Below are positions 11,533-48,106 of a stretch of DNA of 64,000 bases, one piece after another. Source of the stretch: Squalus acanthias. Its lineage: Eukaryota. Position numbers and translations under genes: made by a program. The stretch is taken from positions 1-64,000 of the forward strand of contig JASTWF010000070.1 of NCBI GenBank assembly GCA_030390025.1, in the 5' to 3' direction. The notes beneath the pieces are model-generated. The model had not been told where the DNA came from, did not search any database, and was given only the letters and a program-made list of their open reading frames with translations. The number at the start of each line of letters is the position of its first letter. The first letter of the stretch is position 1.

Positions 11533-11587
11533 CGTAAGGCCAGAACACGTGGACAATGAGGATCAGGGAAAAAGTTGCCTTGAACAT
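11533..11587 (-). CDS. Gene A leader exon MFKATFSLILIVHVFWPY(V)
   Basis: ATG, 18 mostly hydrophobic codons plus 1 nt, G|GTGAGT donor, phase 1 matching the V exon. Confidence 0.82.
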
Positions 11588-11808
11588 CTTGAGGCCGGAG
11601 CCGCGCTCAGTTATTCCCGTGCTCGCTCTCAACATTCTGCATTCGGAGTGGGCGCCGAGTGACCCGAGCGCACACACAGTTGATTACACCCCCTTCAGAT
11701 ACGGTGGAAACTATTCCGCGCTAAGCCTTTGCGTGTGTATCTTGTTGGATGCCACGCCTCATGCATTTTACATGTGGGCAGTGCCTGAACGTCACAGCGG
11801 TCAGTCTA

Positions 11809-11816
11809 ATGCAAAT
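11809..11816 (-). promoter_or_regulatory. Octamer ATTTGCAT about 220 nt upstream of the gene A ATG
   Basis: Perfect ATGCAAAT on plus, i.e. ATTTGCAT in gene A sense; TGACG half-site about 15 nt closer to the gene. Confidence 0.4.
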
Positions 11817-11939
11817 TGCAGGATGGCCATAAAGAGCTTTCGATTATATTTCGGAGAGGGTGCCAGAAAGGTTATGGTTTGGATGCGTGCACTTGTCATT
11901 GTTCTGAATTTTAATTTTGGCAGTTAAAGTTGAGAATTG

Positions 11940-12345
11940 TATTTAATTCATTCACGGGATGTGGGCGTCGCTGGCAAGGCCAGCATTTATTGTCCATCCC
12001 TAGTTGCCATTGAGAAGGTGGTGGGGAGCCGCCTTGTTGAACCGCTGCAGTCCCGTGAGGTGAAAGTGCTCCCACAGTGCTGTTAGGGAGGGAATTCGAG
12101 GATTTTGACCCAGCGACGATGAAGGAACGGCCGGTATTTGTCCAAATCAGGATGGTGTGTGTGACTTGGAGCGGGGAACTTGAAGGTGATGGTGTTACCA
12201 TGCGCCTCCTCTCCTTGTCTTTCTAGGTGTTGGAGGTCGCGGGCTTGGGAGGTGCTGTCGGAGAAGCCTTGCCGAGTTGCTGCAGTGCATCTTGTAGATG
12301 GTACACACTGCAGCCACGGTGCGCCGGTGGTGGAGGGAATGGATA
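11940..12345 (-). mobile_element. Non-LTR retroelement 3' fragment (second family; also at about 14010-14280)
   Basis: Recurrent end gggatgtgggcgtcgctggcaaggccagcatttatt.cccatccc; degenerate NTGRSFIVAGSKSSNSLPNS on minus. Confidence 0.65.
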
Positions 12346-13224
12346 TTTAATGAATGATATTGAGGCTCAGAATAGTATCAATTACTTCTGTGCTAACACT
12401 GGGCAATGCAGATAAACAGGACGCGGTGTCACATGGAAGGGGAGGCTGTAAATGTGGTCAATGTACTCGAGTCGGCTCTCTGTTAAGTTGAATCTACCCT
12501 GGGTGACAACTGTCTTTTGTGTGCGGTTGAACATGTTGCCTGACTGTTTGAAATTTCTGTGTGTGGGCGGCTAATCTGCAGAAACAGGAAAACCACAGAG
12601 AGCTTCTAGCTCGGACATTATTTTCCAGCTGAAGTCAGATACTCGGCCAGCCGTTTCCGCAACTCACTGCACTTTGCACATCTCCTCGCAAGCGGCCCGA
12701 GCAGCGTGATCTGTGGTATTCAGAGCAACAGGCGCGGTCACAGTCAAAGCGCCTCTTCGCTGCCAACGAGCTGGCCCCTCTCTGCTTCAAGCTCAGACTC
12801 GCTTCTTTGTCAGTTGAGGTCAGGCATTTCCGCATCACTGTTCAGAAATTCAGTAAGATACTAAGTGGTCTGCTCAACTCAAAACCAATTCTACCAGAAA
12901 TTAATTCTAAAATTAAAATTGATGTAACTTTCTCTTAGCTCCCAGTTTCCATACCGCTTCATTCTTCTGAAGATGGCCACCCTTGACATAGGTTCCATAG
13001 GCGCCTTCCATAGAATTACACAGAATGTGCAGCACAGACACAGGCCATTCGGCCCACCTGGTCTGTGCCGGTGTTCAACCTCCACAGGAGCCTCCTCCAT
13101 CCCCTCTTCATCTCACCCCATCAGCATATCCTTCTATTTCTTTCTCCCTCATGTGTTTATCTAGCTTCCCCTTAATTGCATTTATGCTATTCGTCTCAAC
13201 CACTCACTGAGGTAGCTTTCAAGC

Positions 13225-15050
13225 ATTGTGTCGAAACTAGTCAACCCCAACTCCGATTTCAGTGGTATATTATTTATATTTTCTACGTTCTTTTAAGATT
13301 GATTCAAAGACCAACCCACAATTCTATTCTCAATATTTATGGCACGTGACCAAGGATTTACCATAATTAATGCTTGTTTCATATTTTGTTCGCGTACAGT
13401 TTTAGCTTCAAAGGAATGTTTCGCCCCGTGAACAGAGAGCAGGCCGCGGTCTACGTCATCTTAATTTCCATCCAATCCCCATTATCGCTCCGAATGGAAA
13501 CAGAGCGAATCCATCAACCCCACTGGTATCTACTGATAGAAATGATCAGTTAATGTCTTTGGCTTAATGCCTTCGACAGACACTCATCCGCAGTGTCATT
13601 CCAGCAGTTTTTGTTTGTATTTCATATACCCAGATTTTACAGCGTTTTTATTATTTCTACAGGGAGTCGAGGCCCCCCAGCCCACCCCGCTGTGGTGATT
13701 GTTTTTAATACTTTAGCCACAGGAATTATTATATAGATGCAGAAATGCGACGACATTCCTGGATAATTGTGAAGATAACTCAAACTATGTTGCTAAATGG
13801 CTTCCATGCTAAGTCGATATACAAGACTTAAGATTGCGTTTCTGTGCATGTGTATGTCTGTGTTTATACGTGGGTGAGTCTGTATTTTTATTTGTGCGTG
13901 TGTGTGTGCGTCTGTGTGCGTGTATATGTGTCGAGGTGTATATGTGTGTGTGCATGTGTGAGTATGTCTGTGTGTATATGTGTGTATCTGTGTGTGTGTA
14001 TATATTTCTCTTTATTCATGGGATGTGGGCGTCGCTGGCAAGGCCGGCATTTATTGCCCATCCCCAGTTGCCCTTGAGAAGGTGGTGGTGAGCTGCCTTC
14101 TTGAACCGCTGCAGTCCCGTGTGGCGAAGGTGCTCCCAAAGTGCTGTTAGGGAGGGAGTTCCAGGATTTTGACCCAGCGACGATGAAGGAACGGCCGATA
14201 AATTTCCAAGTCAGAATGGTGTGTAACTTGGAGGGGAACTTGGAGGTTTTTCCATGCGCCTGCTGCCCTTGTCCTTCTAGGCGTACGTTTATGTGCGTAT
14301 GTGTTTGTGTAAGTGTGTGTATGTAAGTGTTTGTATGTGTTTTTGTATCTGTATGTTTCTGTATAACGAGAAACTGTTGCTATCTGTCTACGCCACTAAG
14401 CAGCGAGCTTGGCCCTCCTAACTGGCAAACAGCGTTTTCATTGAGCTCCCAGGCACACGCAGACTCTTCGCTTGCGTGCAGGGGCGCCATAGCAGCGGTT
14501 TACATTCTCTTAAACTAATGACCAGGGGCCATTGTTCGGAACTATGCCCCTTGACCCTGGAAATAATTTTTCTGGCAGATGGCGTATGACGAAACGGCTG
14601 ATTGGATTGGTTTGACGTGTCAACCAATCAAACAGTGCAGCTGTCTGAATGGACACTTTCATTTAAAAAATTATCTTTTTGTTTTCTAACTTGTGATTAT
14701 TTATGATTAATGTCCGTCTACTGTTGCCTATAAACAGTAAGCCAGATCCGTGTCTTATGGAGAACGAGTAAGCTCATGTAAACGCGATTCAAATATTTAT
14801 ATATTTCCCTGTTTTAATATGTTTTCCAGGCTCGGGGCGGCCCGCGTGACCAGACTCGACATATCGGCGGATTTTGCTGCATTGAAAATGTCATGAAAAA
14901 AGAAGGCGGGAAAGAGGCGAGAACACGAATGGGTTCTATCAGATTTACGAAAGAATCCACAGCAGGCGGAAACAGTAATTAAACTTGCAATGTAAAGCCA
15001 CAGAGACTCTCAACAAACACCTAAACTATCTCAAACTAAGGAGCTTAAGA
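13225..15050 (+). pseudogene. Inverted, decayed relic of the 3' half of an A-type receptor gene
   Basis: Reverse-complement similarity to about 8200-8030, 7250-6870, 5820-5750 and 4500-4270, including the acceptor at 13399 and a degenerate terminal exon at about 14830-14925 (GGPRDQ... with the tyrosine motif lost). Confidence 0.7.
13835..14360. repeat. TG-rich microsatellite interrupted by a retroelement fragment
   Basis: Interrupted (TG)n tracts at 13835-14005 and 14285-14360. Confidence 0.8.
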
Positions 15051-15069
15051 TGATTAAAGTTGATAGAAA

Positions 15070-16085
15070 ATAGAAAGACTTGCATTTCTATAGCGCCTTT
15101 CACCACCACCGGACGTGTCAAAGCGCTTTACAGCCAATGAAGTACTTTTTGAGGTATAGTCCCTGTTGTAGTGTAGGAAACGCAGCATCCAAATTGCACA
15201 CAGCAAGCTCCCACAAAGACCAATGTGATAATGACCAGTTCATCTGTTTTTTAGTGATGTTGGTTGAGGGATACATATTGGACAGGACTCCAGGGTAAAC
15301 TCCCCTGGGTTTCCTTGATATATTTCCATTGCATCATTTACGTCAACCTGAGAGGGCAGACAGGGCCTCATAAGAACATAAGAAATAAGAAATAAGAGCA
15401 GCAGTAGGCCATACGGCCCCTCGAGCCTGGTCCACCATTCAATAAGATCATGTCTGATCATCGACATCAACTCCACTTTCCCGCCCTCCTCCATATCCCG
15501 TGATTCCCCTAGAGTCCAAAAATCTATCGATCTCAGCCTTGAATATACTCAAAGACTGAGCCTCCACAGCCCTCTGGGGCAGAGAATTCCAAAGATTCAC
15601 AACCCTCTGAGTGAAGAAATTCCTCCTCATCTCAGGCTTAAATGGCCTACCCCTTATCCTAAGTCTATGCCCCCTCGGTCTAGACACCCCAGCCAGGGGA
15701 GACAACCTCTTAGCATGTACCCTGTCAATCTCCTTCAGAATCTTATATGTTTCAATGAGATCACCTCTCATTCTTCTAAACTCCAGCGAGTATAGGCTCA
15801 TTCTATACAATCTCTCATCATAGGACAGCCCACTCATCCCAGGAATCAATCTAGGGAACCTTCGTTGCACCGCCTCCAAGGTAAGTATATCCTTCCTTAG
15901 ATAACAGACCAAAACTGTTCACAGTTTAGTGCTTCATCTGAAAGACGGCAGCTCTGACAGTGCAGCGCTCCCTCAATACTGCACTGGGAGTGTCAGCCTA
16001 GATTTTTGTGCTCAAGTCTCTGGAGCGAAACTTTAACCCACCACTTCCTGACTCAGAGGCGAGGATGCTACCAACTCGGCCACAG
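15070..16085 (-). mobile_element. Deu-domain SINE split by a CR1 LINE 3' fragment (about 15370-15925)
   Basis: SINE core at 15070-15368 resumes at about 15930; ORF 15448-15912 encodes the CR1 RT C-terminus. Confidence 0.8.
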
Positions 16086-16099
16086 ATGTCTCTCCTTTA

Positions 16100-17160
16100 G
16101 ATAAAGGGAAAATATTTCCTCTGGCGGGGGGAGACCAGAACAAGGGGGCATAACATTACAATTAGAGACAGGCCGTTCAGGGATGATGGCAGGAGGCACT
16201 TCTTCACACAAAGTGCAGTGGAAATCTTGAACTCTCTCCCCGCAAAAGCCTTGAGGTTGGGGGTCAATTGAAAATTTGAAAACTGAGATTGATAGATTTT
16301 TCTTGGGTAAGGGTATTAAGGGTTACGGAACCAGGGCGGTTAGATGGAGTTAAGATAAAGATCAGCGTGATCTCATTGAATGGCGGAACAGGCTCGAGGC
16401 GCTGAATGGCCTCCTCCTGTTCCTATGTTCCTATCTCTGTGCACTCGCCAGGATTTACGTAGAATGTATTGCTTTTTCAAACACCGCTTAGTGTATTCTA
16501 AAGATAATCCTGTGTATCAGTAGGATGGCGGTATGCAACTAACTTAAAACAACGAGGACTTTCTGGTGTTTCATTTTTCTGCACTTTTTGCCTTGACTGG
16601 TGCCACTGTAGCAAGTTAGTGACCAGTTTGTTGGAAATTTCCCGCAAGCAAATTAAAAAAAGTTTTTCTAAAATAGTACAATGCACTAGAAGTTTAAAAT
16701 CATAGACTCATAGAATGATTACAGCACAGAAGTTGCCATTCGGCCGGTCGAGCCCGTGTCGGCTACCCTCAAGAGCACTTCTGCTAGTCCCACTCCATGC
16801 GCCCTTTCCCAATAGCCCTGCAAATTTCTTTCCTTCAGATATTTTCCAATTCCCCTTTGAAAGCCACGATTGGGTCTGCCTCCACCACCCTTTCAGGCAG
16901 TGCATTCCAGATCCTAACCACTCGCTGCGTAAAAAGGTTTTTCCTCATGTCGCCTCGGTTTTTTGTCAATCACCTTAAATCCGTGTCCTCTGGTTCTCGG
17001 CCCTTCTGCCAATGGGAACAGTTTCTCTCTATCTACTCTGCCTAGACCCCTCACGATTTTGAACACCTCTATCAAATCTCCTCTCAACCTTCTCTGCTCT
17101 AAGGAGAACAACCCCAGCTTCTCCAGTCTATCCACGTAACTGAAGTCCCTCATCCCTGGA
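16100..17160. mobile_element. Two CR1-type 3' fragments (about 16100-16435 plus; about 16700-17160 minus)
   Basis: ORF 16914-17153 LFSLEQRRLRGDLIEVFKI; typical tails. Confidence 0.8.
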
Positions 17161-18801: not shown

Positions 18802-18892
18802 CAGAGAGAGAGAGAGAATGAGAGAGAGACAGAGAGAGAGAGAAAGAGAGAGACAGAGAGAGAGAGTCAGAGAGACACAGTGAGAGAGGGAG
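18802..18892. repeat. (GA)n microsatellite
   Basis: Interrupted GA tract. Confidence 0.9.
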
Positions 18893-20020: not shown

Positions 20021-20059
20021 CACAGTGGTGTCAATAGACGCGCTGACTTGGCTATTGGC

Positions 20060-22143
20060 CATAGAAACATAGGAACATAGAAACATAGGAGCAGGAGTAG
20101 GCCATTCAGCCTCTCGAGCCTGCTCTGCCATTCAATATGATCATGGCTGATCCTCCATCTCAATACCATATTTCCGCTCTCACCCCATACCCCTTGATGC
20201 CTTTTGTGTCTAGAAATCTATCTATGTCCTTCTTAAGTATATTCAGTGACTTGGCCTCCACAGCTGTCTGCGGTAGAGAATCCAACAGGTTCATCACTCT
20301 CGGAGTGAAGAAATTTCTCCTTATCTCAGTCCTAAATGTCCTACCACGTATACTGAGACTGTGACCCCTCGTTCTAGACCTCCCAGCCAGGGGAATCATC
20401 CTCTCTGCATCCAGTCTGTCTAGCCCTGTCAGAATTTTATACATTTCAATGAGATCCCCTCTCATTCTTCTAAACTCTAGTGAATACAGGCCTAGTCGAC
20501 CCAATCTCTTCTCATACGACAGTCCTGCCATCGCAGGAATCAGCCCGGTGAACCTTCGCTGCACTCCCTCTATGGCAAGTATATCCTTTCTTAGATAAGG
20601 AGTCCAAAACTGCACACAGTACTCCAGGTGTGGTCTCACCAAGACCCTGTATAACTGTAGTAAGACATCCTTGTTCCTTTACTCAAATCCTCTTGCAATG
20701 AAGGCCAACATACCATTTTCCTTTCTAACTGCTTGCTGCACCTGCATGATTGCTTTCAGTGACTGGTGTACAAGGACATCCAGGTCCCTTTGTACATCAA
20801 CATTTCCCAATCTATCACCATTTAAATATTACTCTGCCTTTCTGTTTTTCCTACAGAAGTGGATAACTTCACATTTATCCACCTGCATCTGCCATGTATT
20901 TGCTAACTCACTCAACTTGTCTAACTCGCCTTGAAGCCTCTTTGCATCCTCCTCACAACTCACAATCCCACCAAGTTTCGTGTCGTCAGCATACTTGGAA
21001 ATATTACATCCAAATCATTGATATATATTGTGAATAGCTGGGGCCCAAGCACTGATTCCTGCGGTACCCCACTAGTCACTGCCTGCCACCCGAAAAAGGT
21101 CCATTTATTCCTACTCTCTGATTCCTCTCTTTTAACCAATTTTCTGTCCATGCCAGTATATTACCCCTAATCCCACGAGCTTTAATTCTGCACACATTAG
21201 CTCTTATGTGAGACTTTATCAAAGGCCTTCTGAAAATCCAAATACACCACATCCACTGGTTTTCCCTAATCTATTCTACCAGTTACATCCTCAAAAAACT
21301 CCAGTAGGTTTGTCAAACACGATTTCCCTTTCATAAATCCATGTTGACTTTGTTTAATCCCGTTGATATTTTCTAAGTGCCCTGTTATCACATCCTTTAT
21401 AATAGACTCTCGCATTTTCCCTACTACTGATGTTAGGCTGACCGGTCTGTTGTTCCCTGTTTTCTCTCTCCCTCCTTTTTTAAATAGTGGAGTTACATTT
21501 GCCACCCTCCAATCTGCAGGAACTGTTCCATAATCTATAGAATTTTGGAAGATGATAAACAATGCATCCACTATTTCCATGGCTACCTCTTTTAGTACTC
21601 TGGGATGCAAATTATCAGGCCCTGGGGATTTATCAGCTTTCAGTCCCATTAATTTCCCCAGCGCTATTATTTTACGAATACTAACTTCCTTTAATTCCCC
21701 CTTCTCACGAGACCCTTCGTTGCCGAGCATTTCTGGGAAGTTATTTGTGTCCTCTTCCGTGAAGACAGAACAAAAGTATTTGTTTAATTGCTTTCCATTT
21801 CCTTGTTACTCGTTATAAATTATCCCGTTTCTGACTGTAAGGGACCTAAATTTGTCTTCACAAATCTTTTTCATTTTTACTTAATTGTAGAAGTTTTACA
21901 GTCCGCTTTTATGTTCCTTGCAATTTTACTCTCATACTCTATTTTTCCCCTCTTAATCAATCTCTTGGTCCTTTTTTGCTGAATTCGAAAATGTTCCCAA
22001 ACCTCAGCCTTGCTACTTTTTCTGGCAACTTTATATGAGCCTCTTTAGATCTAATACTGTCCTTAATTTCTTTAGTTAGCCATTGTTGGGCCGCTTTTCC
22101 TTTTGTGTATTTGCGCCTGAAAGGAATGTATAACTGTTGCATT
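20060..22143 (-). mobile_element. 5'-truncated CR1 LINE (about 2.1 kb), present only in duplication unit 1
   Basis: ORFs 20160-20642, 20960-21151, 21266-21730 (KSPGPDNLHPRVLKE, QHGFMKGKSCLTNL, SGVPQESVLGP); empty site at about 34765-34785. Confidence 0.92.
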
Positions 22144-23601: not shown

Positions 23602-26600
23602 ATGGCTCCAGCGTTGCATCTTCTGTGGGCTCTGCTGATCCATTTAACAGGTGAGAGACGGATGGTTTTAGTCACGGGTTTATCCGCAACTAAATCGGTT
23701 CAATACCGAGAATCGAGCGGTTTTCTCTCCGTGTTTATTGACGTATTAACATCCTATTAGCTCCAAGTCTCTGAATGAGTTGATTTTTTTCTTTTATTGA
23801 AGGTGTCCTGGCGGCTCCCGTCCTCAATCAGTCCCCAATATCCGATCCTGTCTCCGCGGGTCTGACCGCCCGGTTACAGTGTGCGATGGAGAACGGGGCT
23901 GTGGGCAGCAAACGCGTGGAATAGTTCCGACAGCGACCCGGGGAAGCTCCGGTGTATTTGATATATCACAAGCATGATGGCACCATCTACCGAGGTACCG
24001 GCTTCACAGACCGTTTTCAACCTTCCAGCGACGCCTCCGGTAACAGTTACATTCTGACCATCGGAACCCTGGTGCCCGGTGACTCCGCCGTCTATTACTG
24101 TGCTGTCTGGGACACGGAATACAGCTTCGGACCGGGGACCGTCTTGAGTATAAAGAGTAAGTGACTCTCTCATTCTATCATTTACATTGTTTCAATTATT
24201 ATTAATTTACAGTCGCTTTCATTCCCGGGCGCCAGAGAAATCTCGATTCAGTGAATTTTGATGTTGGATCTATTTATACCCAAAAAATGTTAAACTTGTC
24301 AGAATTGGAATTGTTGAAGCGCCTCGTGGAATAATACTGCGCTGAAATGAAGTTTGACACCATTTCCTGCTCCCATTCAATAGGGGAGATGAGGAGAAGT
24401 GTTCTTTTTACGCAGCGAGTTGTTGTGATCTGGAACGCGCTGCCTGAAAGGGCGGTGGAAGCAGATTGAATAGTGACTTTCAAAAGTGAATTGGATAAAT
24501 ACTTGAAAAGGATAAATGCAGAGCTTTAGGGAAAGAGCAGGGCAGTGGGAATAATTGGATAGCTCTATTCAAAGAGCCGGCACTGGCACGATGGGCTGAA
24601 TGTCCTCATCGGAGAACTGATTGATAAAATAGTGACAGAGGAACAGGAGGAGGCCATTCAGCCACTCGAGCCTGTGTGAAAAAGTGCTTACCTCCTCAAT
24701 GGCCGGGCTCTAATTTTAAGTTGATGTCCCCTGGTTCATGATTCCCCGACCGGAGTAAATCGTTTCTCTGTGTTGACCCGATCGAATCCTTTTTCACATT
24801 TTAAACACCTCGATCTGTATCACCTCTGAATCTTCTAACCTCAAGGGAATACAGGCCAAGTTTATGCAACCCGTCCTCGTAATTTAACCCTCTAAGCGGC
24901 GGTAGCATTCGGGTGCGGCAAGAGAGAGAGACAGAAACAGAGAGAGAGGAAAGTTCGGAGCTGCACTGTGTAGTTCTGACATTGGGCACTGAATATGTCA
25001 CTATGTTACACTGAGACTTGAACAGGAGAAAATTGCAGGGCTCTGCGGAAAGAGCAGGGGAGTGGGACTGATTGGAGAGCTCTTTCAAAGTGCCGGCACT
25101 GGCACAATGGGCCGAATGGCCTCCTTCTGTGCTGTATGATTCTATGCTGTTCCTTACTTCTTCTCGATGTGTATGTGGAATTATTCCTATTGTCCAGAGT
25201 CTGCACCGCCCGATTTTAAATAGATTGCTCGGAGCCGGCGAGAGAGTTAGCGGGGAATGCCAACCCATTTACCGCCATTTACAACTTTCAATGTTGCTGC
25301 TGGTTTTATTCCTGTGGCGTATTGTGCCCCTGACTGCAGCCGTCGGTTGTCCGGCTCTGGGCTGGGAGAGAGAGAGGACCCTCCCGAGACCCGCTGTCCC
25401 AGCACACAACCGGTTGGATCGACTCCCTGTCGCCAGCAACACCGGGACTAGTCAGGATTGTATTCATTTGCCGGGACTGGTTTTATCCCGAATTTCCTGC
25501 TGCGATATTTAATCTGTCTCAGGTCATTATTTGCAATCTCCCCGCTGTTTATAGAGCAGAACCGCCGCTTTACCTTGGAGCGGCACAATGACAATTACTG
25601 ACCAGCCCCGTGTGTGTGAGTGAGACTGGGTGATGCTTGTTGAAGGGAGCTTTCTCTCCACCTCATTCTCTCGCTGCTGACCCTCTCCCTCCCCCAGGCT
25701 GTGTCTGCTGACTCTCCCTGTCCAGTGTCCCCCCGGGGATAGCGCCGAGGTCTTTAAAATTATGAAACGTTTTGATAGAGTAGACACAGAGAGAATGTTT
25801 CCACTGGTGGGGAAGGTCAAAACTATGAGCCATCAATATAAGAGAACACCAATAAATCAAATAGGGATTTTGTTACCCAGAGAGTGGTGAGAATGTGGTA
25901 CTCACTACAACACGGATTGATTGAGGAAAATAGTATAGATTTAAGGGGAAGCTAGATAAGCACATGAGGGAGAAGGGAATAGAGGGTTATGCTGATAGAG
26001 TTAGGTGTGGACGGATGGGAGGAGGCTGGAGTGGAGCATAAACGCCGGCATGGATTGGTTGGGACGATTGACTGTTTGTGTGCTGCATATTCTGTGTAAT
26101 TCTATGTAAAGCATTTACAATATTGGTAGGCAGAGTCACTACATTAATTCCCAGCCCGTGTACAATGTCCTCTCTTTATTCAGTGAGCTCTTCAATACCC
26201 GGTAAAAGACACGGCTCAATTATCATCCCCGCAACATTTAAAGCCGATCAGTTTCTAACTCGCAATTCCACATGAATATGATTCGCAAACAAAACTTCCG
26301 GGCAGTTATGGAATGATACAGCACAGAAGGAGGCCATTCGGCCCATCGTGCCTGTGGCGGCTCTTTGAAAGGGCTGCATCAGTTTGAGATATCAGAACAT
26401 AATGTGGACTCTCGGTGAAAAGCGATTCACTGCTCCGTGATTTCACCACTTTAATGTTAACACTGAACGGATTTTAAGACAATCAAACGCTTTATTATAT
26501 TCAAGTAAAAAGCCAAAAAAACTGCAATTACAGGAAATTAAATAAAAACAGAAAATGCTGGGAATACACGGCCGGTCGGTCAGTGTCTGTAACGGGAACA

Positions 26601-27324
26601 GACAGGTTAGTGCGGTTCCGGGGGTGTAACCTGCACCTGAACTGGTCAGTTACTGATCTTTCCGCCTCACTCATGCTGACAGACCCGGTCTGTATTTCCA
26701 GCATTTTCTAGCATTTTCTGTGTTTAGTTTTCAAAAAATTCAGGAAGAATGCAATAAAGAAAGAAAGAATGAAGTACTTTTGAACCAAGTCACTTTTGTA
26801 ATGTAGGCAGATGAATTGGCAGAGGAGCAGAGGAATTAGAGATTTAAGAATTTATTGGAACTCCTGTATTAATCAGTAATTTATTTGAAAGTGAATGTTG
26901 TTCGGGGGTTCTTTGGGGTCTTTGATTTCAGATCAGAGCGTCCCACTGCTGACGGATTCCATAAACTAATGAATTTTCTCTGCCCCCACACGCAGGCAGC
27001 GAGGATCGAAGCCCCTCGGTTCTTCTCCTGCCTCCCTCCTCGGACGAAATCGGCTCGGGCTCGGCCACTCTGTCCTGCCTGGTCAGTCGCTTTAAGCCGG
27101 GCTTGGTGCGGCTCCGCTGGAGCGTGGATGGCCAAGAGACAGACAGCGGGGTGACGACAGGCGCCGTGTCCCCGGACAGCGATCAAACCTACAGCCTGAG
27201 CAGTTACCTGAGAGTCCCCGCCGCCGCCTGGAACAAGGGCTCCAGCTATTCCTGCAGCGTCAGCCACGGCTCCCTGAGCTCGCCTCTTCTCAAGACCATC
27301 AGCGCCTCTTCGTGTTCCGACTGA
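23602..27324 (+). pseudogene. Germline-joined Ig light chain, sigma-2/sigma-cart (type I) class, copy 1; exons 23602-23650 (L), 23803-24156 (VJ), 26996-27324 (C)
   Basis: MAPALHLLWALLIHLTGVLAAPVLNQSPISDPVSAG...IYRGTGFTDRFQPS...GDSAVYYCAVWDTEYSFGPGT matches elasmobranch type I light chains from recall; in-frame TAG at 23922-23924 replaces the conserved FR2 Trp; splice sites canonical; AATAAA 27624-27629. Confidence 0.88.
26996..27324 (+). CDS. Ig light-chain constant exon, copy 1 (frame intact)
   Basis: SSEDRSPSVLLLPPSSDEI...ATLSCLVSRFKPGLVRLRWSVDG...TYSLSSYLRVPAAAWNKGSSYSCSVSHGSLSSPLLKTISASSCSD*, with C-terminal H-L bond Cys. Confidence 0.93.
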
Positions 27325-36105: not shown

Positions 36106-38734
36106 ACCGGTAATAAATTGACCCGGAGTCTCGGGTTTGCAGACACTGTAACCGGACCGGGTCCCGGAGTTTACAGGAACAGCGCACGGTTCAGTCAGAA
36201 ATTTGAGTGGCGGCTGTTGGCGCTTCTCCGGAGGAAATGGCTCCAGCGATGCATCTCCTGTGGGCTCTGCTGATCCATTTAACAGGTGAGAGACGGATGT
36301 TTTTAGACACGGGTTTATCCGCAACTAAATCGGTTCAATACCGAGAATCGGGCGGTTTTCTCTCCGTGTTTATTGAGGCATTAACGTCCTATTTGCTCCA
36401 AGTCTCTGAATGGGTTGATTTTTTTCTTTTATTGAAGGTGTTCTGGCGGCTCCTGTCCTCAATCGGTCCCCAATATCCGATCCTGTCTCCGCGGGCCAGA
36501 CCGTCCGGTTACAGTGTGCGATGCAGAACGGGGCTGTGGGCAGCAATCGTGTACTGGTTCCGACAGCGACCCGGGGAAGCTCCGGTGTGGGTGCTAACAT
36601 ATGAAACAGATAATGATATATACCGAGGCACCGGCTTCACAGATCGTTTTCAACCTTCCAGAGACGCCTCCGGTAACAGTTACATTCTGACCATCGGAAC
36701 CCTGGTGCCCGGTGACTCCGCCGTCTATTACTGTGCTGTGTGGGCTCCGGGATACATCTTCGGACCGGGGACCGCCCTGAGTATAAAGAGTAAGTTACCC
36801 TCACATTCTATAATTGACATTGTTGCAATTTTTAATTTACACTCGCTTTCATTCCCGGGCGCCAGAGAAATCTCGATTCAGTGAATTTTGTTGTTGGATC
36901 TATTTATGCACAAAAAATGCGAAACTTTTCAGAATTGGAATTGTTGGAGCGCCTCGAGGTATAATACTGAGCTGAAATGAAGTTTTACACCATTTCCTGC
37001 TCCCATTCAATAGGGGAGATGAGGAGAAGTGTTCTTTTTACGCAGCGAGTTGTTGTGATCTGGAACGCGCTGCCTGAAAGGGCGGTGGGAGCAGATTCAA
37101 TAGTAACTTTCAAAAGTGAATTGGATAAATACTTTACGTTATGAATTAATGTAAACAGTAAATTGGTTTAGGAAGGCTATAAAATCCTTGGAGAGGTTGC
37201 AGAGCAGATTACCTGTAATAGAACCAGGGATGAGCGAATTCAGTTATGTGGAGAGACTGGAGAAGCTGGGATTGATCTCCTTAGAGCAGAGAAGGTTAAG
37301 GGGAGATTTGATAGAGGTGTTTAAAATTATGTAGGGTTTGATAGAGTAAATAAGGAGAAGCTGTTTCCACTTGCAGGAGGGTCGGTAACCAGAGGACACA
37401 GATTTAAGATAATTGGCAAACACTGGAGGGGAGAGGAGAAGAATATTCTTTGCCCAGCGAGTTGTTGTGATCTGGAACGCACTGCCTGTAAGGGCGGTGG
37501 AAGCAGATTCAATAGTAACTTTCAAAAGGGAATTGGATAAATACTTGAAAAGGATTAATGCATGGCCACGGGAAAAGAGGAGTGGGAGTAACTCCTCGAT
37601 CAGATCGCCCCTGAATCTTCGAAAGTCAAGGGAATACAAGCCACGTTTATGCAACCCGTCCACGTAATTTAACCCGCCAAGCCCCGGTATCATTCGGGTG
37701 CAGAAAGAGACATAGATAGAGAAAGAGCGAGAGGAAAGTTGTGAGCGACACTGTGAAGTTCTGGTAGTGGACACTGAATATGTCACTATGTTACATTGAG
37801 ACTTGAAGGGGAGAAAATTGCAGGGCTATGGGGAAAGAGCAGGGGAGGGGACTAATTGGAGAGCTCTTTCAAAGAGACGGCTCAAGCACGATGGGCCCAA
37901 TGGCCTCCTTCTGTCCTGTGTGATTCTTTGCAATCCCTTACTTATTCCCTTAGTGTATGTAGAATTATTCCTATTGTCCAGAGTCGGCACCGCCCGATTT
38001 TAAAAAGATTACCCGGAGCCGGCGGGAGAGACCCCGGGGGAATCCCAACCCATTTACCGTCAATTGCAACTTTCAAAGTTGCTGCTGGTTTTATTCCTGT
38101 GGCGTATTGTCCCCCTGACCGCAGCCGTCGGGTGTCCGGCTCTGGGCTGGGAGAGAGAGAGGACCCTCCCGAGACCCGCTGTCCCAGCACAGAACCGGTT
38201 GGATCGACTCCCTGTCGCCAGCAACACCGGGACTAGTCGGGATTGTATTCGTTTGACGGGACCGCTTTTATTCTGAATTTCGTGCTGCGGTATTTAAACT
38301 ATCTGAGCTCATTATTCGCAATCTCCTCGCTATTTATAGAGCAGAACCGCCGCATTACCATGGAGCGGCGCAGTGACAATTACTGACCAGCCCCGTGTGT
38401 ATGATTGAGACTGGGTGATGCTTGTTGAAGGGAATTTTCTCTCCATCTCATTCTCTCGCTGCTGACCCTCTCCCCTCCCCCAGGCTGTGTCTGCTGACTC
38501 TCCCTGTGCAGTGTCCCCCCGGAGATAGCGCCGATTCTCCTGGGTTGATCTGTCGGGTCCCGCTACCGCCCAGTGTTGAACGGATCACTCCGGGACCAGC
38601 GAGACTGACCTGATCCCGAGAGAGAAATCAGTTTATACGCGCGGGGAGGAATCCTTACTTGCCTCTGTAGCGAGAATCTTTTACAATCCTTGTTCCCCAT
38701 TTCACTGGAAATATCAAACAGTGAAAACCCTTCA

Positions 38735-39130
38735 TCAAAGAGAAGGCTGAGGGGTGACCGAATAGAGGTTTTTAAAATGATGAAAGGTTTTGATGGAGTA
38801 GTTGCAGAGAGAATCTTTCCACTTGTGGGGAAGAGGATGACTAGAGACCATCAATATAAGATAGTCACCAAGAAATCCAATGGGGAATTCAGGGGAAACT
38901 TCTTTACCCAGAGAGTGGGGAGACTGTGGAACTCGCTACCACAGGGAGAGGTTGAGGCGAATAGTATAGATGCATTTAAGGAGAGGCTAGATAAGCGCAT
39001 GAGGGAGAAGGGAATAGAGGGTTATGCTGATAGAGTTAGATGAGGAAGCATGGGAGGAGGCTCGAGTGGAGAATAAACGCCGGCATGGACTGGTTGGGCC
39101 GAATGGCCTGATTCTGTGCTGTATATTCTG
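38735..39130 (+). mobile_element. CR1-type LINE 3' fragment in the J-C intron
   Basis: RRLRGDRIEVFKMMKGFD...FFTQRVGRLWNSLP in ORF 38690-39043. Confidence 0.85.
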
Positions 39131-40048
39131 TGTAATTCTGTGTAAACCATTTACAATATTGTTAGGCAGAGTCCCTACATTAATTCCCAGCCCGTGTACA
39201 ATGTCCTCTCTTTATTCAGTGAGCTCTCAAATACCCGGTAACAGTCTCGGCTTAATTATCATCGCCGCAACATTTAAGCCGATCAGTTTCTAACTCGCAA
39301 TTCTAAAAAAAATACGAATTGTTAAAAAAACTTCCGAATCCTATACAATGATATAAGGAGGTCACTCGGCCCATCGTGCCTGTGGCGGCTCTTTGAAAGG
39401 GCTGCATTAGTTTGAGATATCAGAACATAATGTGGACTCTCGGTGAAAAGCCGATTACAGCTCCGTGATTTCATCTCTTTAAAGTTAACACTGACCGCAT
39501 TTTAAGACAATCAAACGCTTTATTATTTTCAAGTAAAAAGGGAAAAAACTGCAATTGTAGGAAATTAAATAAAAACTGAAAATACTGGGAATACACGGCC
39601 GGTCTGTTATTTTCTGTAACGGGAACAGTCAGGTTAGTGCGGTTCCGGGGGTGTAACCTGCACCTGAACTGGTCAGTTACTGATCTTTCCGCCACTCACA
39701 TCCTGACTGACCCGGTCTGTATTTCTGCATTTTCTGTGCTATTTTACAAGAAAGAAAGGGAGACTTGCCTTTCTCCAGCGCCTTTCACGACCTCAGGACG
39801 CCCCAAGGCGCTTTACAACCAATGAAATACAGTTGAACCAAGTCACTGTTGTAATGTAGGCAAAAGAATTGGCAGAGGAGCAGAGGAATTAGAGATTTAA
39901 GAATTTATTGGATCTCCTGTATTAATCAGTAATTTATTTTAAAGTGAATGTTGTTCGGGGTTCTTTGGCATCTTTGATTTCAGATCAGAGCGTCCCACTG
40001 CTGACGGATTCCAAAAACGAATTAATTTTCTCTCCCCCCCACACACAG

Positions 40049-40377
40049 GCAGCGAGGATCGAAGCCCCTCGGTTCTTCTCCTCCCTCCCTCCTCGGAAGA
40101 AATCGGCTCGGGCACGGCCACTCTGTCCTGCCTGGTCAGTCGCTTTAAGCCGGGCTTGGTGCTGCTCCGCTGTAGCGTGGATGGCCAAGAGACAGACAGC
40201 GGGGTGACGACAGGCGCCGTGTCCCCGGACAGCGATCAAACCTACAGCCTGAGCAGTTACCTGAGAGTCCCCGCCGCCGCCTGGAACAAGGGCTCCAGCT
40301 ATTCCTGCAGCGTCAGCCACGGCTCCCTGAGCTCGCCTCTTCTCAAGACCATCAGCGCCTCCACGTGCTCCGACTGA
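40049..40377 (+). CDS. Ig light-chain constant exon, copy 2 (open frame, core Trp mutated)
   Basis: 329 nt, near-identical to 26996-27324; LVLLRCSVDG vs LVRLRWSVDG. Confidence 0.85.
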
Positions 40378-42325: not shown

Positions 42326-44717
42326 TCCGCCATTCAGTTAGATCATGGCTGATCTGTATCTTAACTCCATCTACCTGTCTTGGTTCCATAACCCTTAATA
42401 CCCTTTCCCAACAAAAATCTATCTCTCTCAGTTTTGCTATTTTCAATTGACCCCCAGCCTCAACAGCTTTTTGTGCGAGAGAGTTCCCGATTTCCTTTGT
42501 GTGAAGAAGTGCTTCCTGGCATCACCCCTGAACGGCCTGGCTCTAATTTTAAGTTGATGCCTCCTTGTGCTAGACTCCCCCCGCGCCCCCCCCACCAGAT
42601 GAAATAGTTTCTCTCTCTCTACCCTATCGAATCCTTTAATCATCTTAAGCACCTCAATTAGATCGCCCCTTAATCTTCTATATTCAAGGGGATTCTAGCC
42701 TAGTCTGTGCAAATCTCACCCTTTTTGGCCGCAGTAGCGTTTGGTTTGGTCTCTTGTGCCGTTTAGTGTATTTGCTTCCATATGCTCAACAGTGAGTGAT
42801 TTTACTCCAATCTCTCCAGATTTCGCCAGTCTTTAATGCTAATTCCAGCTCCTGAAGGTTTTTGACTCTACTCTGAAGCTGGCCGAGGGCTGGGATATCT
42901 CCCACGTGTTATGGGGCGCTTCTGTACTCAAAAGTTAGGCAGACTACGAATCAGTTTCCATCTCGCAGTAACGTGTAATACTAATCGGGAATTCTGGCCC
43001 AACCAGACCCCTGAGAGGAGTGCTGTGTTGCCGGACCGGGAGCCAATGTAGGTCAGCGAGCACAGGGGGTGATGGGTGAATGGGACTTGGTGCGAGTTAG
43101 GATACGGGCCAGCAGAGTTTACACCCCTGATTATTCTCCTTTACAGAGACTGGGATACCAGCATCCCAGAACCAAATTTACTCCGAACGACCGCTCTACC
43201 ACTACGGGCTCCACTGATGTCCTGAATTGATTGTGCATTGTGGGTATCATTGTCCATTGAACATTGCAATTTTTCTGGGAGTCACAGGAAGGAAGTGATC
43301 CTCACTCTGCTTCCAAACCTCAGCTCTGAAGTGTGAAAAGGAGTCGCCAGGGGGTGACAGAGAAACGCCATCAGACACTCACCCTTATCACATGTTGCCT
43401 CCAGGGGGCGTTTGGTTAAATGAACGACCCCATTCAGATTTAAGTTTCAGCTATATAAAAATTGAATCATTAATCTATTTTGAGACTAATTGACTGGAAA
43501 TAATTATTGAGTTGTTGGGATGTCAGAGCGATAAAATGAATGTTGTTTCGCATTGTTATTATGAAATATTCAAGTACTTTGATGCTGGGAGTTTGTGGAT
43601 CACAGCGTGGTACACAAGAACAGAAGAAATAGGAGCAGGAGTAGACCATTCCGCCCTTTGAGCCTGCTCCGCCATTCAATAAGATCATGGCTAATCTTCG
43701 ACCTCATCTGCACTTTCCTGAACTATCCCCATATCCCTTGATTCCCTTAATAGTCACAAATTTGTCGTTCTCTATCTTGAATATACGCAACGACCGAGCC
43801 TCTACAGCCCTCTGGGGTAGAGAATTCCAAAGATTCACCACCCACTGAGTGAAGAAATTTCACCTCATCTCAGTTCTAAATGGCCGACCCCTTATTCTGA
43901 GACTGTGACCCCTGGTTCTAGATTCCCCAGCCAAGAGGTATACACTCTTACTGCTATTTTCTGGCATAAGCTGTTATTTTAAAAAGTATATTCTTCAGAT
44001 GTAAAGGTTTATCAATCAGTTACCTAAAACATGGCCATTAGATTTTACAGTGAATTATGCTGCGAGTTAATCTTATTTACCTGGATTCACTCCTGTGAAT
44101 AATTGGTTACCTGGATAATTCTGGGAATTAAGAAATGTGGATTGTAGACAGCACCCAGTTGAACTCCGTTTATTCAGTCTCTATTAATTGTCCATCCCTG
44201 TTTATAGGTTATAACTATCAGGCAAGATTGAACAGGCTGGGGTTCTTTTCTCTAGAAAGGAGAAGTCTGAAGGGTGAGCTGACAGAGGACTTTAAGATTA
44301 TGAAAGGGTTTGATAGGGTAGACATATAGGAGATTTTCCACTTCTGGGGGAGATCAGAACTAGGGGCTATCAATATAAGATAGTCACTAAAAAATCCAAT
44401 AGGGAATTGAGGAGAAACTTTTTTTTACACAGTGTGGTTAGAATGTGGAACTCGCTACCACAGGGAGTGGTTGAGGCAAATAGCATAGATGCATTTAAGG
44501 AGAAGTTAGATAAACACGTGAGGCAGAAAGCAATAGAAGGATATGGTGATCGGGTGAGATGAAAAGGGATGGGAGGAGGCTCGTGTGAATCATAAACACC
44601 GGCATGGACATGTTGGGCCGAATGGCCTGTTTCTGTGCTGCACATTCTCTGTAATTCGATGTAGTGAAGGGATTGCAGTGAAAGAGTCTTTTGCACATCT
44701 CTCACTCTTTCCTGGCT

Positions 44718-44954
44718 TTCTCTACAGTTTTCCCCGACACGCTCTTCTCCATATTTTAGCTGGAGAAGTCTAGTGGAACAGCACAAAGTACAGACAGCGC
44801 CGCTGCTCCAAGTTTGCACCGAGACACTGATGTGACTTCTGTTGCTGTAGGTCCCGTCCGGGTCTATTGTACCGGGAATCGGTGCGTCGCTCTGTAACCC
44901 CGTCTGGAAACATCCCAGAAAATAGCATTCCGGTTCGAGGAAGCACCACTGACC
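44718..44954 (-). pseudogene. Decayed C1 exon of the A/D receptor family
   Basis: Across three or more frameshifts reads VSGASSNRNAIFWDVS/VTERRTDS/GTIDPDGTYSNRSHISVSVQTWSSGAVCT/CAVP...KSVSGKTVE, homologous to 10156-10475 and 48199-48501. Confidence 0.85.
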
Positions 44955-45769
44955 CTACACGGTAAGGAGACTGTCCTTCTAATAAACTTTGAATTTGCAG
45001 GAATGGGTTTTTTGTTACTTTCGTGCCGACTCCGTACAGGTTTGATACAAAGATTAAAGTCCATGAACATCGGAACAGGAGGAGGCCATTCAGCCCCTGG
45101 AGCCTGTCACACACTCAATTAGATTATGGCTGATCTGTATCTTAGCTCCATCTACCCGCCTTGGTTCTGTGACCCTTAATACCCTCACCCAACAAAAATC
45201 TATCGATCTCAGTTTTGAAATTTGCAATTGATCCCTAGCCTCGACAGCTTTTTGGGGGAGAGAGTTCCAGATTTTCACTACCCTTTGTGTGAAGAAGTGC
45301 TTCCTGAACGGCCTGGCTCTAATTTAATTAACAAACTGTCCATTCGTTGTAAATATATGGAACCTGAATACACAAACCCTCTTGCTGCTCATTTTGCATG
45401 TACAGAATTCAAAGGGAGTGAACCTTCCCCGCATTCACTGCCATTACACGGAACTCCGATGGACAAAAGTCTTCTATATTGATTGCTTTTGAATGCAACA
45501 GGAAAACCTATCAGTTAATTCTCATTTTGCATAATTCCAGGGGCCGAAACCCTTTCCCATTCATCCCATTAGAAGGATGATGATCACCAACTACCTATGT
45601 GCAAAATACCAAAGGGTCAAACCTCATTTTTGTTTGATACACCAAATGTAATGTAGGCAACTTTGATGCAATCTTTATCAAAGTTAAGGTATTCTATATT
45701 AATGCAGTGTTTGATTGCTCAGACACAGTATCTGACACAACATGAATGTGTTGCAAAACATTGAATGCA

Positions 45770-46405
45770 ATCAAACTCCCACAAACAGCAGTGTAATAAT
45801 CATCAGGACATCTCATTTATTGATGTTGACTGAGGTATAAATATTGGCCCAGGACACCGAGGAGAACTACCCCTGCTCTTCTTCAAATAGTGGCCCTGGG
45901 ATCTTTCACAGCCACCTGAGAGAGCAGACGGGGCCTCGGCTTAACGTTGCGTCCGAAAGTCGGCCCCTCCAACAGTGCAGCGCTCCCTCAGTACTGCTCC
46001 TCCGACAGTTCGGCGCTCCCTCAGTACTGCTCTTCCAACAGTGCGGCGCTCCCTCAGTACTGCCCCTCCAACAGTGCAGCGCTCTCTCAATACTGCCCCT
46101 CTGACAGTGCGGCGCTCCCTCAGTACTGCCCCTCCGATGGTGCGGCGCTCTCTCAGGACTGACGCTCAGACAGTGCGGCACTCCCTCAGTACTGCCCCTC
46201 TGACAGTGCGGCGCTCCCTCAGTACAGCCCCTCCGACAGTGCGGCGCTCCCTCAGTACTGACCCTCCGAGAGTGCGGTGCTTCCTCAGTACCGCACTGGG
46301 AGTGTCGGTCTGGATTATGGGCTCAAGTCGCTGGAGTGGGACCTGAACAAATCCCTGACCTTCTGCCTCAGAGCGAGAGTGCTACCCACTGAGCCACGGC
46401 TGACA
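45770..46405 (-). mobile_element. Deu-domain SINE with internal 33-bp minisatellite (about 45962-46295)
   Basis: Same unit and SINE context as 6219-6605. Confidence 0.8.
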
Positions 46406-47767
46406 CAGAATGAGTAACAGGATCAAATCCTGCAACAAAGAGACAGGCAGCATTCAGATACTGGGTGAAACAGTTATCGAAAGAAAGACTGTCACCTCAT
46501 ATAGCACGTCCCAATACTGGCACTGGCGTGTCGGCATAGATTTTTGTGCTCAAGTCTCTGGAGTGGAACTCTGAACCCACGACCTTCTGACTCGGAGGCG
46601 AGAGTGCTGCCCACTGAGCCGCGGCTGGTATAATAACAGATGATTGCACCTTTCTTCAATCTGGTCTATTTTTGTTGGTACAAGTAAGGGTGTATGAATG
46701 AATGGGTTCTGGACCAATAAAAAGCAACACTCGGAATAGGATCATGCCCTCGCGCCCACACGAATGACACAAGCAGTCCGGTGTGTGCAATTCAGCACTG
46801 CGTGCCTTCAGTTCATTGTTTAATCAGCCTGCACTGCACGCCGCCTTTCACGCCTGTTTAACACGAGCTGGAATGCATTGCCCTTTGCAGGCAGACCTGT
46901 GCGTGGGCGTTTAATGTGTCAACAGGAAACCGCAGCGAGCCTTGCCATTGCGCTGTATTTTCCAGCCTGCTATTTTTAAAACGCAAGCACGCAATTTCCG
47001 CAGCTCTGCCTTTCACATCTCTTGCGAGCCGGGCCCAGCGCAAAGACATCCCAGCAAAGTGTTCAGTGTGCAGCTCACAGCAAGCACCTCGGTCGCCGAC
47101 AATGAGCTTCTTAACTCCCTGCGCGCTGTTCCATCTCTTTCCAGGTCAGTCTTATGTGCTTCTAATACATGGCGGAATTCAAGCGTAAGATCATTGAGCT
47201 GGTCAGACAAGTAGAAGATAGCGCGCTGTATTCTCTAATATTATTGTCATGTTGAAGGACTGGATTATCTCAGGCGAATGAAATTAGACCAAATGTCAAT
47301 ATTTTCCATCTATTGGATGTCCCGTCTGCCCTCTCAGGTGGAGCGAAAAGATCCCACGGCCACTATTGGAAGGAGAGCTGGGGAGTTCTCCTCGGTATCC
47401 TGGGGACAATATTATATTCCTCAATCAACATCACAGATTACCTGGTCATTACCATATTGCTGTTTGTGGGAGCTTGCTGTGCGCAATTTGGTTGCCGCGT
47501 TTCCTACATTACAACAGTGACTACACTGCAAAAGGTAATTCATTAGCTGTAAAGATCGTAATTCCTTTCTTTCTTCCTTTCATTCCTTCTCCTGTTATAG
47601 ACTCAATTTTAACCCCCATCATTTGAGTCATTTAGATATTAGTATCCACGTTCATTAATGATCGGATGGTCCTATTCACAGTTTACTGCCGTACCCGTTT
47701 CTTTTTAGGAAGCGGTGTTTATTTCTGCCGTGTATCAGACCCTCTTGTGAACATGTTCTTCTCTCAG

Positions 47768-48106
47768 TTATTGTCTGTCAGGAAGTTTTCCGCCAGAATC
47801 CTCCGGTTCAGACTGTCTCCGTTGGAAGTATCTTTAAGGTGGATTGTCACACGGGTTGGTTAGCAGGAGAAGCTGTGCACTGGTACAAGCGGCAGCACCG
47901 AGAGCATCTACAGCTAGTTTACACCGTGGGAAAGTACATGCCTCCTGAAGGAAGATTTTCCGGAGAAGTTAACAACGAATCCAGTATTTACTCTCTGATT
48001 GTGAAAGATGTCCAGAGGAATGATTCGGGGGTGTATTACTGCGCAGCTAAGAAATATAGCCTAATGCCCTTGATATTCGGAAACGGCTCGAAATTGCTCA
48101 TTGCAG
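47768..48106 (+). CDS. Gene D single-exon germline-joined VJ-type Ig domain
   Basis: ttctctcag acceptor; IVCQEVFRQNPPVQTVSVGSIFKVDC...VHWYKRQ...GRFSG...YSLIVKDVQRNDSGVYYC AAKKYSLMPLI FGNGSKLLIA; 339 nt phase 1-1; CAG|GTAAG donor; no RSS; leader exon not securely located. Confidence 0.92.

Follow-up and report, generated by a model that had tools for sequence, protein, structure and literature searches.

Gene content of the window

The window, that is, the whole stretch of DNA analysed, comprises 64,000 nt of Squalus acanthias (GCA_030390025.1, JASTWF010000070.1, positions 1-64,000, forward strand). Exon probes placed its elements in the order D' >, < A, relic >, IgL1 >, IgL2 >, < C1 relic, D >, < A' (Table 1), which is exactly the order given in a preliminary description of this DNA, both light-chain clusters included. 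This order of receptors and light chains is confirmed as real. Only D and A' are open among the receptors of the window, A and D' being broken, and neither light chain could yield a functional chain, with a stop in IgL1 and a frameshift in IgL2. In other cassettes the relic retains its TM exon as well.

Table 1. Receptor genes, light-chain clusters and relics in the window.
Feature	Position	Strand	Structure	State
D'	241..1225	(+)	D-type receptor, 5' part lost at contig start; TM 241-355 (two bases shorter than that of D), last tail exon from 1181; first tail exon not found	Broken, frameshifted
A	4401..11587	(-)	Eight exons: leader 11533-11587, VJ 10566-10898, C1 10156-10475, TM 8384-8485, tail 8255-8285, 7985-8025, 7368-7417, 4401-4487 (last encodes HLYASL)	Broken; 1-base deletion at C1 end shifts frame, stop at start of TM exon
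Relic	13227..14944	(+)	Partial inverted copy of 3' half of A; last exon 14823-14940, 72% to that of A, without tyrosine motif	Last exon decayed
IgL1	23602..27324	(+)	Germline-joined sigma-2 cluster; L 23602-23650, VJ 23803-24156, C 26996-27324	Broken; TAG replaces conserved C-strand Trp
IgL2	36237..40377	(+)	Germline-joined sigma-2 cluster; L 36237-36285, VJ 36438-36789, C 40049-40377	Broken; 2-base deletion in CDR1
C1 relic	44774..44974	(-)	Inverted fragment of a receptor C1 exon; 82% to D (145 bases) and 76% to A (184 bases)	
D	47102..54181	(+)	Six exons: leader 47102-47144, VJ 47768-48106 (FGNG), C1 48199-48501, TM 50979-51095, tail 51239-51297, 54137-54181 (TLYAHL)	Open, 301 aa
A'	58391..58477	(-)	Last exon of next A gene (ILYASL); gene of eight exons running on to C3553:69065, mostly outside the window	Open, 339 aa

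Both A and D carry V and J in a single exon, with Pfam V-set and C1-set matches, one C1 domain each, a TM exon and a YxxL motif in the tail. The J-region motif was FGNG in D and degenerate (LGNG/LRNG) in A. The surroundings of A, D, IgL1 and IgL2 yielded no RSS-like site. The YxxL motif was present in 24/24 of the homologues listed. It reads I/PLYASL in A and TLYAxL in D. A cysteine precedes each receptor TM (invariant in 22 D rows) and the TMs are uncharged. The intron between V and C1 is about 90 bases long in the receptors, versus 2.8-3.3 kb in the light chains. The motifs make A (ITIM-type) and D (ITSM-like) likely inhibitory receptors, which would signal via tyrosine phosphatases and may form a disulphide-linked pair through the cysteine before each TM.

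For the V-domain loops of A, pN/pS was 3.6 (1.6-13.9; 13 sequences). No RNA data set is listed on record as containing D. The V-C1 splice of D was seen in one contig of a putative RNA run (X19), its short side of 25 letters lying below the bridging threshold, and that of A is suggested by depth arithmetic on one contig with 61 letters in the C1 bin. A PDB search with a D homologue returned generic antibodies only. The nearest ESM Atlas clusters had 99 and 51 chordate members of V-set plus C1-set structure and 290-297 aa.

The preliminary description had taken both light chains for germline-joined sigma-2, which the analysis bore out. Both are VJ-joined; their V exons grouped with skate 'type I' and horn shark sequences in a clade with 100/99 support, and their C exons fell in the sigma-2 clade (89/84) with 75% identity to skate type I. 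All 48 sigma-2 V exons examined on contig C3553 were germline-joined, and 36 of the 48 were open. An unjoined V-RSS...RSS-J sigma-2 relic lies at C24:46.64 Mb and seven of nine horn shark sigma-2 models have no J, which indicates that the clusters were once split. Positive selection on the light-chain loops was not seen, since pN was 0.26 but pN/pS was 1.0, from pairwise counts that are non-independent.

Organization and growth of the array

The same arrangement recurs along about 1.39 Mb of C3553, which holds 21 A and 23 D receptor genes and 48 sigma-2 V exons; the array also includes a D2 subfamily beside about 20 A/D pairs. Directly adjacent convergent (tail-to-tail) D/A pairs numbered 18, and A-D adjacencies were more frequent than in shuffles (19 observed vs 10.5, p = 0.002). 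Because the pattern recurs over this distance and the adjacency is non-random, the order is neither chance nor a mis-join. Positions 1-46289 of the window are 99.6% identical to C3553:223323-269610, so it may represent a copy made very recently or a haplotype that was not purged. The twin of D' lies at C3553:223560, as part of the D copy at 220211. Near-identical blocks of 46 kb (99.6%) and 67 kb (98.4-99.5%) are each present twice, and because of them the copy numbers are possibly inflated by haplotypes.

The stretch from A to IgL1, spacers included, was collinear at 84-92% with seven further cassettes within the first 464 kb, the twin not counted, and most cassettes differed by 8-16%. Since spacer DNA was duplicated along with the genes, the nesting of light chains inside the receptor array, as the preliminary description put it, holds as physical interleaving, but a mixed block duplicated as a whole explains it better than insertion into a receptor array does. 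The non-coding DNA of neighbouring A and D genes shares a history (Mantel r = 0.32, p = 0.015, 17 pairs; r = 0.26, p = 0.035 without the twin). That of the light chains showed no such correlation with its neighbours (r = -0.04 for A and IgL, 20 pairs; r = -0.01 for D and IgL, 13 pairs). Lock-step co-duplication of light chains with their neighbours left no signal in V exons or non-coding DNA and was rejected; as light-chain DNA does not track its neighbours, pure lock-step copying of cassettes is too simple.

The window is one repeat of the array, with sigma-2 clusters between tail-to-tail VJ-C1 receptor pairs; the array probably grew by duplicating a mixed block from the shark-ray ancestor. 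The inherited block (D > < A plus light chains) would have been duplicated repeatedly, and unequal crossing-over together with one large inversion centred near 380 kb may have built the array. The light chains would afterwards have duplicated locally and exchanged sequence independently, and copies would frequently die, in a birth-and-death manner. Joining of the light chains in the germ line would have been the work of RAG, an established mechanism; the receptors bear no trace of any past split.

Phylogeny of the receptors

In the C1 tree, A and D formed a clade with 100/100 support that included the chimaera A and lay outside the light chains (97/95), and sigma-2 was monophyletic without the receptors. 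The V tree held 54 of 55 rows, one D2 row having dropped out. No tree united the receptors with sigma-2. C1 identity of the receptors was 28-33% to sigma-2 versus 30-34% to lambda, and the top outsider in the receptor-C1 profile was sigma-2 C, with up to 70 bits versus 66 for lambda. Placement of the receptors as sister at the sigma-2 root was not rejected for single domains (AU p = 0.14 and 0.19). The same placement was modestly rejected for both domains concatenated (AU p = 0.034, with one extra VJ row that joined the group after the tree was seen). The concatenated tree put the receptors weakly near TCR alpha/delta V (94/85, unstarred), in a set of trees that took in no TCR constant domains. 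A SIRP-like V-C1 gene of the S. acanthias genome (C5) did not group with A or D.

A and D are paralogues, old and sister to each other, that lie outside the light-chain clade. As they lie outside that clade and the chimaera has A, a recent derivation from the light chains of the array fails. The earlier proposal, descent of the receptors from germline-joined Ig/TCR genes, is not supported as regards the light chains here, given the monophyly of sigma-2, C1 domains no closer to sigma-2 than to lambda, and the chimaera gene. The comparison of A/D with sigma-2 suggested at that time gave a separate A+D clade, the deep sister position being only weakly rejected.

Linkage in other species and flanking genes

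Of the 12 sharks and rays that could be tested, 10 had receptors and sigma-2 on one contig, 'same contig' meaning contigs of equal size, which is weak evidence for four ray chromosomes of 170-252 Mb. In Amblyraja and Narcine the two types of match were on different contigs. Two ray gene models fuse both types on one strand (P0293, IgL-IgL-D type; P0012, D-IgL). In the horn shark, rearranging sigma-2 shares a chromosome with the receptors, and in the white shark a sigma-2 match lies together with an A gene on a 6.0-Mb contig. The synteny check proposed in the preliminary description found the linkage in other sharks and rays. The profile search for receptors matched elasmobranchs only (43/43 matches listed), and no bony-vertebrate orthologue was among the matches listed, in word-limited and hence weak searches. 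The linkage was not found in the literature searched.

Two papers place gar and bowfin sigma-2 beside or within IgH (PMC5985310, PMC8423624), so the receptor linkage may be elasmobranch-only. The ancient linkage proposed earlier is supported back to the shark-ray ancestor, on the shared contigs and fused ray models, but not as far back as the jawed-vertebrate ancestor. Linkage of the array locus to IgH/PSMB5 was also considered, in view of a white shark chr27 gene labelled 'sigmaprime' in table S1 of PMC12227049. It was rejected on evidence from two other loci, the white shark 6.0-Mb contig and C284 of the S. acanthias genome, whose light chain, on a contig with IgW-type exons, fell outside sigma-2 in the tree.

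The flanking genes include PEX11 (presumably subtype 'B', from its exon pattern, the Atlas naming no subtype), MRPL24, HDGF and EST1-family genes, which look like those of the human 1q21-23 block. The labels EIF3J-like, IGDCC-like, SMG5 and ANKRD35-like are provisional; PDB searches with three of these exons returned nothing. Of 50 matches to MHC class I exons, none mapped to C3553, C24 or C185, and the link to the MHC raised in the preliminary description was not borne out. The flanks resemble the human block, not the MHC. That block is termed MHC-paralogous in a reference title in PMC5002277.

Origin of the neighbourhood

Assembly error would be a very improbable source of the interdigitation. 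Two blocks occur twice, and C3553, an unplaced scaffold, contains gaps, but there is no N from A to the C1 exon of D in the window and most cassettes differ by 8-16%. The linkage also reappears in independent assemblies, so that neither a mis-join nor a linkage unique to one assembly, both possibilities raised earlier, agrees with the data. It is also rather improbable that an ancient germline-joined light-chain (or TCR) gene gave rise to the receptors by gaining TM and tail exons before the chimaera-shark split. The common L / VJ / C1 exon layout, its introns in phase 1, the profile scores and the single-domain AU values are consistent with such an origin, but the concatenated AU value, the equal identities to sigma-2 and lambda, the short V-C1 intron, the uncharged TMs and the lack of an RSS remnant argue against it.

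A primordial linkage seems to us unlikely. On this view sigma-2 would have neighboured the receptor pair ever since the common ancestor of jawed vertebrates, and that pair would stem from the unsplit VJ-C1 gene that gave rise to light chains here. It would accord with the chimaera A gene, with the 1q21-23-like flanks, and with UrIg2 as a precedent at IgH (PMC12227049). PRARP, placed 'in the MHC', is moreover named among the VJ genes that point to a proto-MHC/antigen-receptor region (PMC10751288). Opposed to it are the gar and bowfin sigma-2 positions, the trees, which leave the receptors apart from sigma-2 and weakly near TCR alpha/delta V, and the lack of MHC class I exon matches on C3553, C24 and C185. 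Most likely, the neighbourhood is an old chance juxtaposition maintained by cassette duplication, not by joint function.

The origin of Ig and TCR has been argued from the positions of unsplit VJ-C1 genes relative to rearranging loci, and a two-domain membrane pair beside sigma-2 across sharks and rays gives this argument another locus to test, on a paralogous block other than those used before. It is a doubtful but conceivable reading that this is the third shark locus, after MHC/UrIg and IgH/TCR/UrIg2, with a RAG-split receptor beside unsplit VJ-C1 kin; from the first jawed vertebrates onward, sigma-2 would then have kept its place on a CD1-type MHC-paralogous block alongside the genes of an inhibitory A/D heterodimer, and no living form would come closer than this pair to the receptor of two chains and two domains that RAG invaded. 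Even if sigma-2 arrived later, the array shows an antibody light-chain repertoire expanding alongside a receptor family that is likely inhibitory. Many RefSeq 'light chain-like' and 'heavy chain-like' labels are explained as well, as these are really A/D-type receptors.

Comparison with known systems

The closest known system is PRARP/VJC1, a non-rearranging pair reportedly described by Fu and by Ohta and their colleagues in 2019. It is a gene pair with single-exon VJ, membrane-bound, with an ITIM or ITSM tail and disulphide-linked dimers on lymphocytes; it has a V-C1 form in non-avian species, and orthologues are reported from bony vertebrates. The likeness is one of these features; the homology searches returned no named PRARP sequence. 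Like PRARP/VJC1, A and D have a single-exon VJ without RSS and a V-C1-TM plan with an ITIM (A) or ITSM-like (D) motif in gene pairs. They differ in their number, with about 20 pairs plus the D2 subfamily, and in being interleaved with sigma-2 clusters.

Teleost NITR and SIRP-type paired receptors share with A and D a J-like V domain, ITIM tails and clustered birth-and-death expansion, but the second domain of NITR is of I/V type and that of A and D is C1. TCR chains have charged TMs; A and D, unlike a rearranging TCR chain, have neither a split V-J with RSS nor a charged TM residue.

UrIg, with three C1 domains, is linked to the MHC, and UrIg2, with about nine, to IgH/TCR alpha-delta; the available part of the paper describes no ITIM and does not mention A or D (PMC12227049). 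As far as that text goes, all are elasmobranch genes with an unsplit VJ and C1, and UrIg2 is likewise linked to rearranging Ig/TCR genes, but A and D each have a single C1 and a tyrosine motif and are linked to sigma-2, not to MHC or IgH/TCR alpha-delta. Sigma-2 (type I, NS5, sigma-cart) is known as L-VJ-C miniclusters, split and joined in different species, and the available parts of these sources do not describe the neighbours of the shark locus (PMC4279169, PMC5985310). The light chains of the array have the same minicluster form, unlike them in that about 48 joined copies are interleaved with receptor genes.

Gene content of the window

The window makes up the initial 64 kb of a contig (C3553) that is 1.68 Mb long in a genome of 3.7 Gb. 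Using one DNA probe per exon, we reproduced the gene order given in the preliminary description, in which germline-joined sigma-2 light-chain clusters (IgL1 and IgL2) are interdigitated with VJ-C1 receptor genes (A, A', D and D'). Splice-checked models showed that gene D is open (301 aa) with six exons (leader, VJ, C1, TM and two tail exons) and the C-terminus TLYAHL, and that A' has an open reading of 339 aa with ILYASL. Gene A has eight exons in its splice-checked model and a 1-base deletion at the C1 end, which leads to a stop in the TM exon; the deletion was not present in 19 of 21 A copies. The conserved Trp of IgL1 is replaced by a stop, and IgL2 carries a 2-base deletion. The relic in this order is a partial inverted copy of the 3' half of A, and the C1 relic is a partial receptor C1. 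No RSS-like sites were found around A, D, IgL1 and IgL2, the four genes scanned. LINE-type reverse transcriptase fragments, together with numerous SINEs and 33-base repeats, filled the introns and spacers of the window.

Organization of the array

Own-genome searches, each scoring 150 candidates and thus giving lower bounds, showed at least 21 A, at least 23 D-type and at least 48 sigma-2 V exons from 10 kb to 1.387 Mb of C3553. At least 18 tail-to-tail D/A pairs were directly adjacent, and the light chains formed 20 runs of one to five each, lying 5' of the receptors, with an inversion centre at ~380 kb. Gene order was strongly patterned, with 19 A-D adjacencies observed against 10.5 in shuffles (p = 0.002). 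The joined VJ probe aligned full-length to all 48 sigma-2 V exons found (36 open, 6 with stops, 6 with frameshifts). An open V together with an open C1 was seen in 14 of 21 A copies and in 10 of 23 D-type rows, the latter total including 6 divergent copies poorly covered by the probe. A second D subfamily, D2, lies chiefly near the array ends; horn shark, catshark and Mustelus have orthologues of it.

Within the first 464 kb, seven other cassettes carry the spacer from A to the first light chain at 84-92%, duplicated collinearly along with the genes, and this duplicated DNA is direct evidence for block duplication. In non-coding distances A and D tracked each other weakly and the light chains did not track the adjoining A or D, which counts against a simple lock-step model; we infer local duplication and gene conversion among the light chains themselves. 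Two blocks were present twice at 98-99.6% identity, so some copies may be haplotypes. The copy on C24 leads into single-copy genes and the matching C3553 block leads into more array; one of these placements may be a haplotype. The CDR3 of one joined sigma-2 copy (RIWDDKASTHIFG) is longer than the short form elsewhere, which suggests a separate second germline joining event or conversion.

Features of the array and related sequences in S. acanthias (C, contigs; L, excerpted pieces of the genome)
Feature	Location	Remark
Near-identical block pair	window:1-46289 vs C3553:223323-269610	99.6%
Near-identical block pair	C24:48840421-48907087 vs C3553:111253-178250	98.4-99.5%
D2	C3553:131678, 105814, 1067281, 1117534, 1227524, 1339562	~55% in V
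Joined sigma-2 with longer CDR3	C3553:501741 (L112)	
Unjoined sigma-2 cluster	C24:46639880-46640600 (L142, L143)	broken, V-RSS...RSS-J
Divergent joined sigma-2 V	C24:46647037	
More A, D and sigma-2 copies	C185:531369-919247; C3349:2198-37243	mostly broken, two other scaffolds
Joined VJ exon	C559:88219-88539 (L208, L232)	single-copy
Family of joined VJ exons	C262, C515, C3676, C3786 (L224, L229)	large
LRR-TIR frame	C3553:1614954-1614566 region, L214:1954-4566	single-exon, 871 codons
Dermatopontin-family exons	L096:4537-4908 + L098:3897-4124	C3553 ~1.43-1.45 Mb
LINE-type reverse transcriptase fragments	window:61542-63140 and 20060-22128	

Split and joined light chains

J was missing from seven of the nine sigma-2 models that lie on the receptor-bearing chromosome of horn shark. 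In the unjoined S. acanthias cluster a degenerate RSS follows V and another precedes J; the cluster adjoins a divergent joined V, and the array copy of C24 is 2.2 Mb away. Together these indicate that the linked light chains rearrange or formerly did. The short CDR3 of the joined copies is also that of the GenBank sigma-2 protein AES93003.1. Both the sigma-2 isotype and joining in the germ line are established (PMC4279169).

Linkage and chromosomal context

Contig sharing in other species was judged from the size of the contig reported for each homologue match. Receptor and sigma-2 proteins were on a common contig in 10 of 12 testable species (Heterodontus, Stegostoma, Rhincodon, Carcharodon, Mustelus, Pristis, Hypanus, Hemitrygon and two Mobula), so the proposed linkage holds outside this assembly. 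In Amblyraja and Narcine the contigs differed, with light-chain matches on 1.9-Mb scaffolds; the count leaves aside five species in which only the receptor had a contig and four in which only the light chain did. Sharing on 6-22 Mb chromosomes is close linkage, and sharing on large ray chromosomes is by itself weak evidence. Gene models of Mobula (P0293, IgL-IgL-D type) and of Hypanus (P0012, D-IgL) fused the two gene types on one strand, and their accession numbers in RefSeq were close together, which is no more than a rough proxy for proximity. The linkage is real and conserved in elasmobranchs, and its best explanation is an old juxtaposition that was copied by duplication of the cassette.

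PEX11 lies 82 kb beyond the last light chain with no intervening gap, followed past two gaps by a methyltransferase, MRPL24 and HDGF. The array-edge copy on chromosome-scale C24 is gap-free to an ankyrin gene and an EST1-family gene. C23 and C19 carry the other PEX11 genes, each in the vicinity of RGM genes, and unplaced scaffolds carry a fourth RGM and a second LIX1. This distribution places the array locus in the fourth copy of that paralogon, which we take to be human 1q21-23, the CD1 block. Linkage to the MHC, also raised previously, was not seen: none of the 50 MHC class I matches listed was on C3553, C24 or C185. In the excerpts of the published accounts, gar IgH is flanked by two joined sigma-2 genes (PMC5985310) and bowfin sigma-2 lies within the VH cluster (PMC8423624), so one lineage moved sigma-2. 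The S. acanthias contig also has a Toll-like receptor (LRR-TIR) frame between the array and MRPL24/HDGF, and exons of the dermatopontin family in the stretch from the array to PEX11.

Relationship between the receptors and sigma-2

The C1 tree, whose 55 rows did not include TCR constant domains, placed A and D in a single clade (100/100) separate from light chains (97/95); the V tree (54 rows) gave good support to each of A, D and sigma-2 and weak support at deeper nodes. C1 identity was 45% between A and D, and that of the receptors was 28-33% to sigma-2 and 30-34% to lambda; the S. acanthias and skate sigma-2 C domains were 75% identical. Forcing receptors and sigma-2 together was not rejected with either single domain (p = 0.141; p = 0.189) and was modestly rejected with both (p = 0.034, one VJ row having been added after the tree was seen). 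The trees, identities and constrained tests exclude derivation of the receptors from the neighbouring light-chain clusters. A very old sister link between the receptors and sigma-2 would be unlikely. Chimaera has an A orthologue.

In the concatenated tree the C559 VJ exon, which has a long branch, grouped with A and D. The large VJ family is related to sigma-type V domains, and its relatives in other sharks (P0173-P0189) are annotated as multi-V proteins.

Receptor features and comparison with known systems

The tail YxxL/I motif was present in all 24 homologues listed, most A sequences having I/PLYASL and most shark D sequences TLYAxL. The TMs are uncharged with a cysteine just before. The A V loops showed excess amino-acid change (pN/pS 3.6) and D C1 was conserved (pN/pS 0.42). 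The D V-C1 junction was found at a predicted GT-AG intron in one contig from a run presumed to be RNA. These features suggest that A and D are putative inhibitory receptors for variable ligands.

The anatomy of A and D presumably fits that of PRARP. In the excerpted text of PMC10751288, PRARP is named once and VJ-C1 genes in tetrapods are noted. Our literature search found no description of these receptors beside sigma-2; shark members or the linkage may already be mentioned in Fu 2019, Ohta 2019 or Flajnik 2023. UrIg2 is the precedent in the literature for an unsplit VJ-C1 gene adjoining Ig loci, but its domains and genomic place differ from those of A and D (PMC12227049).
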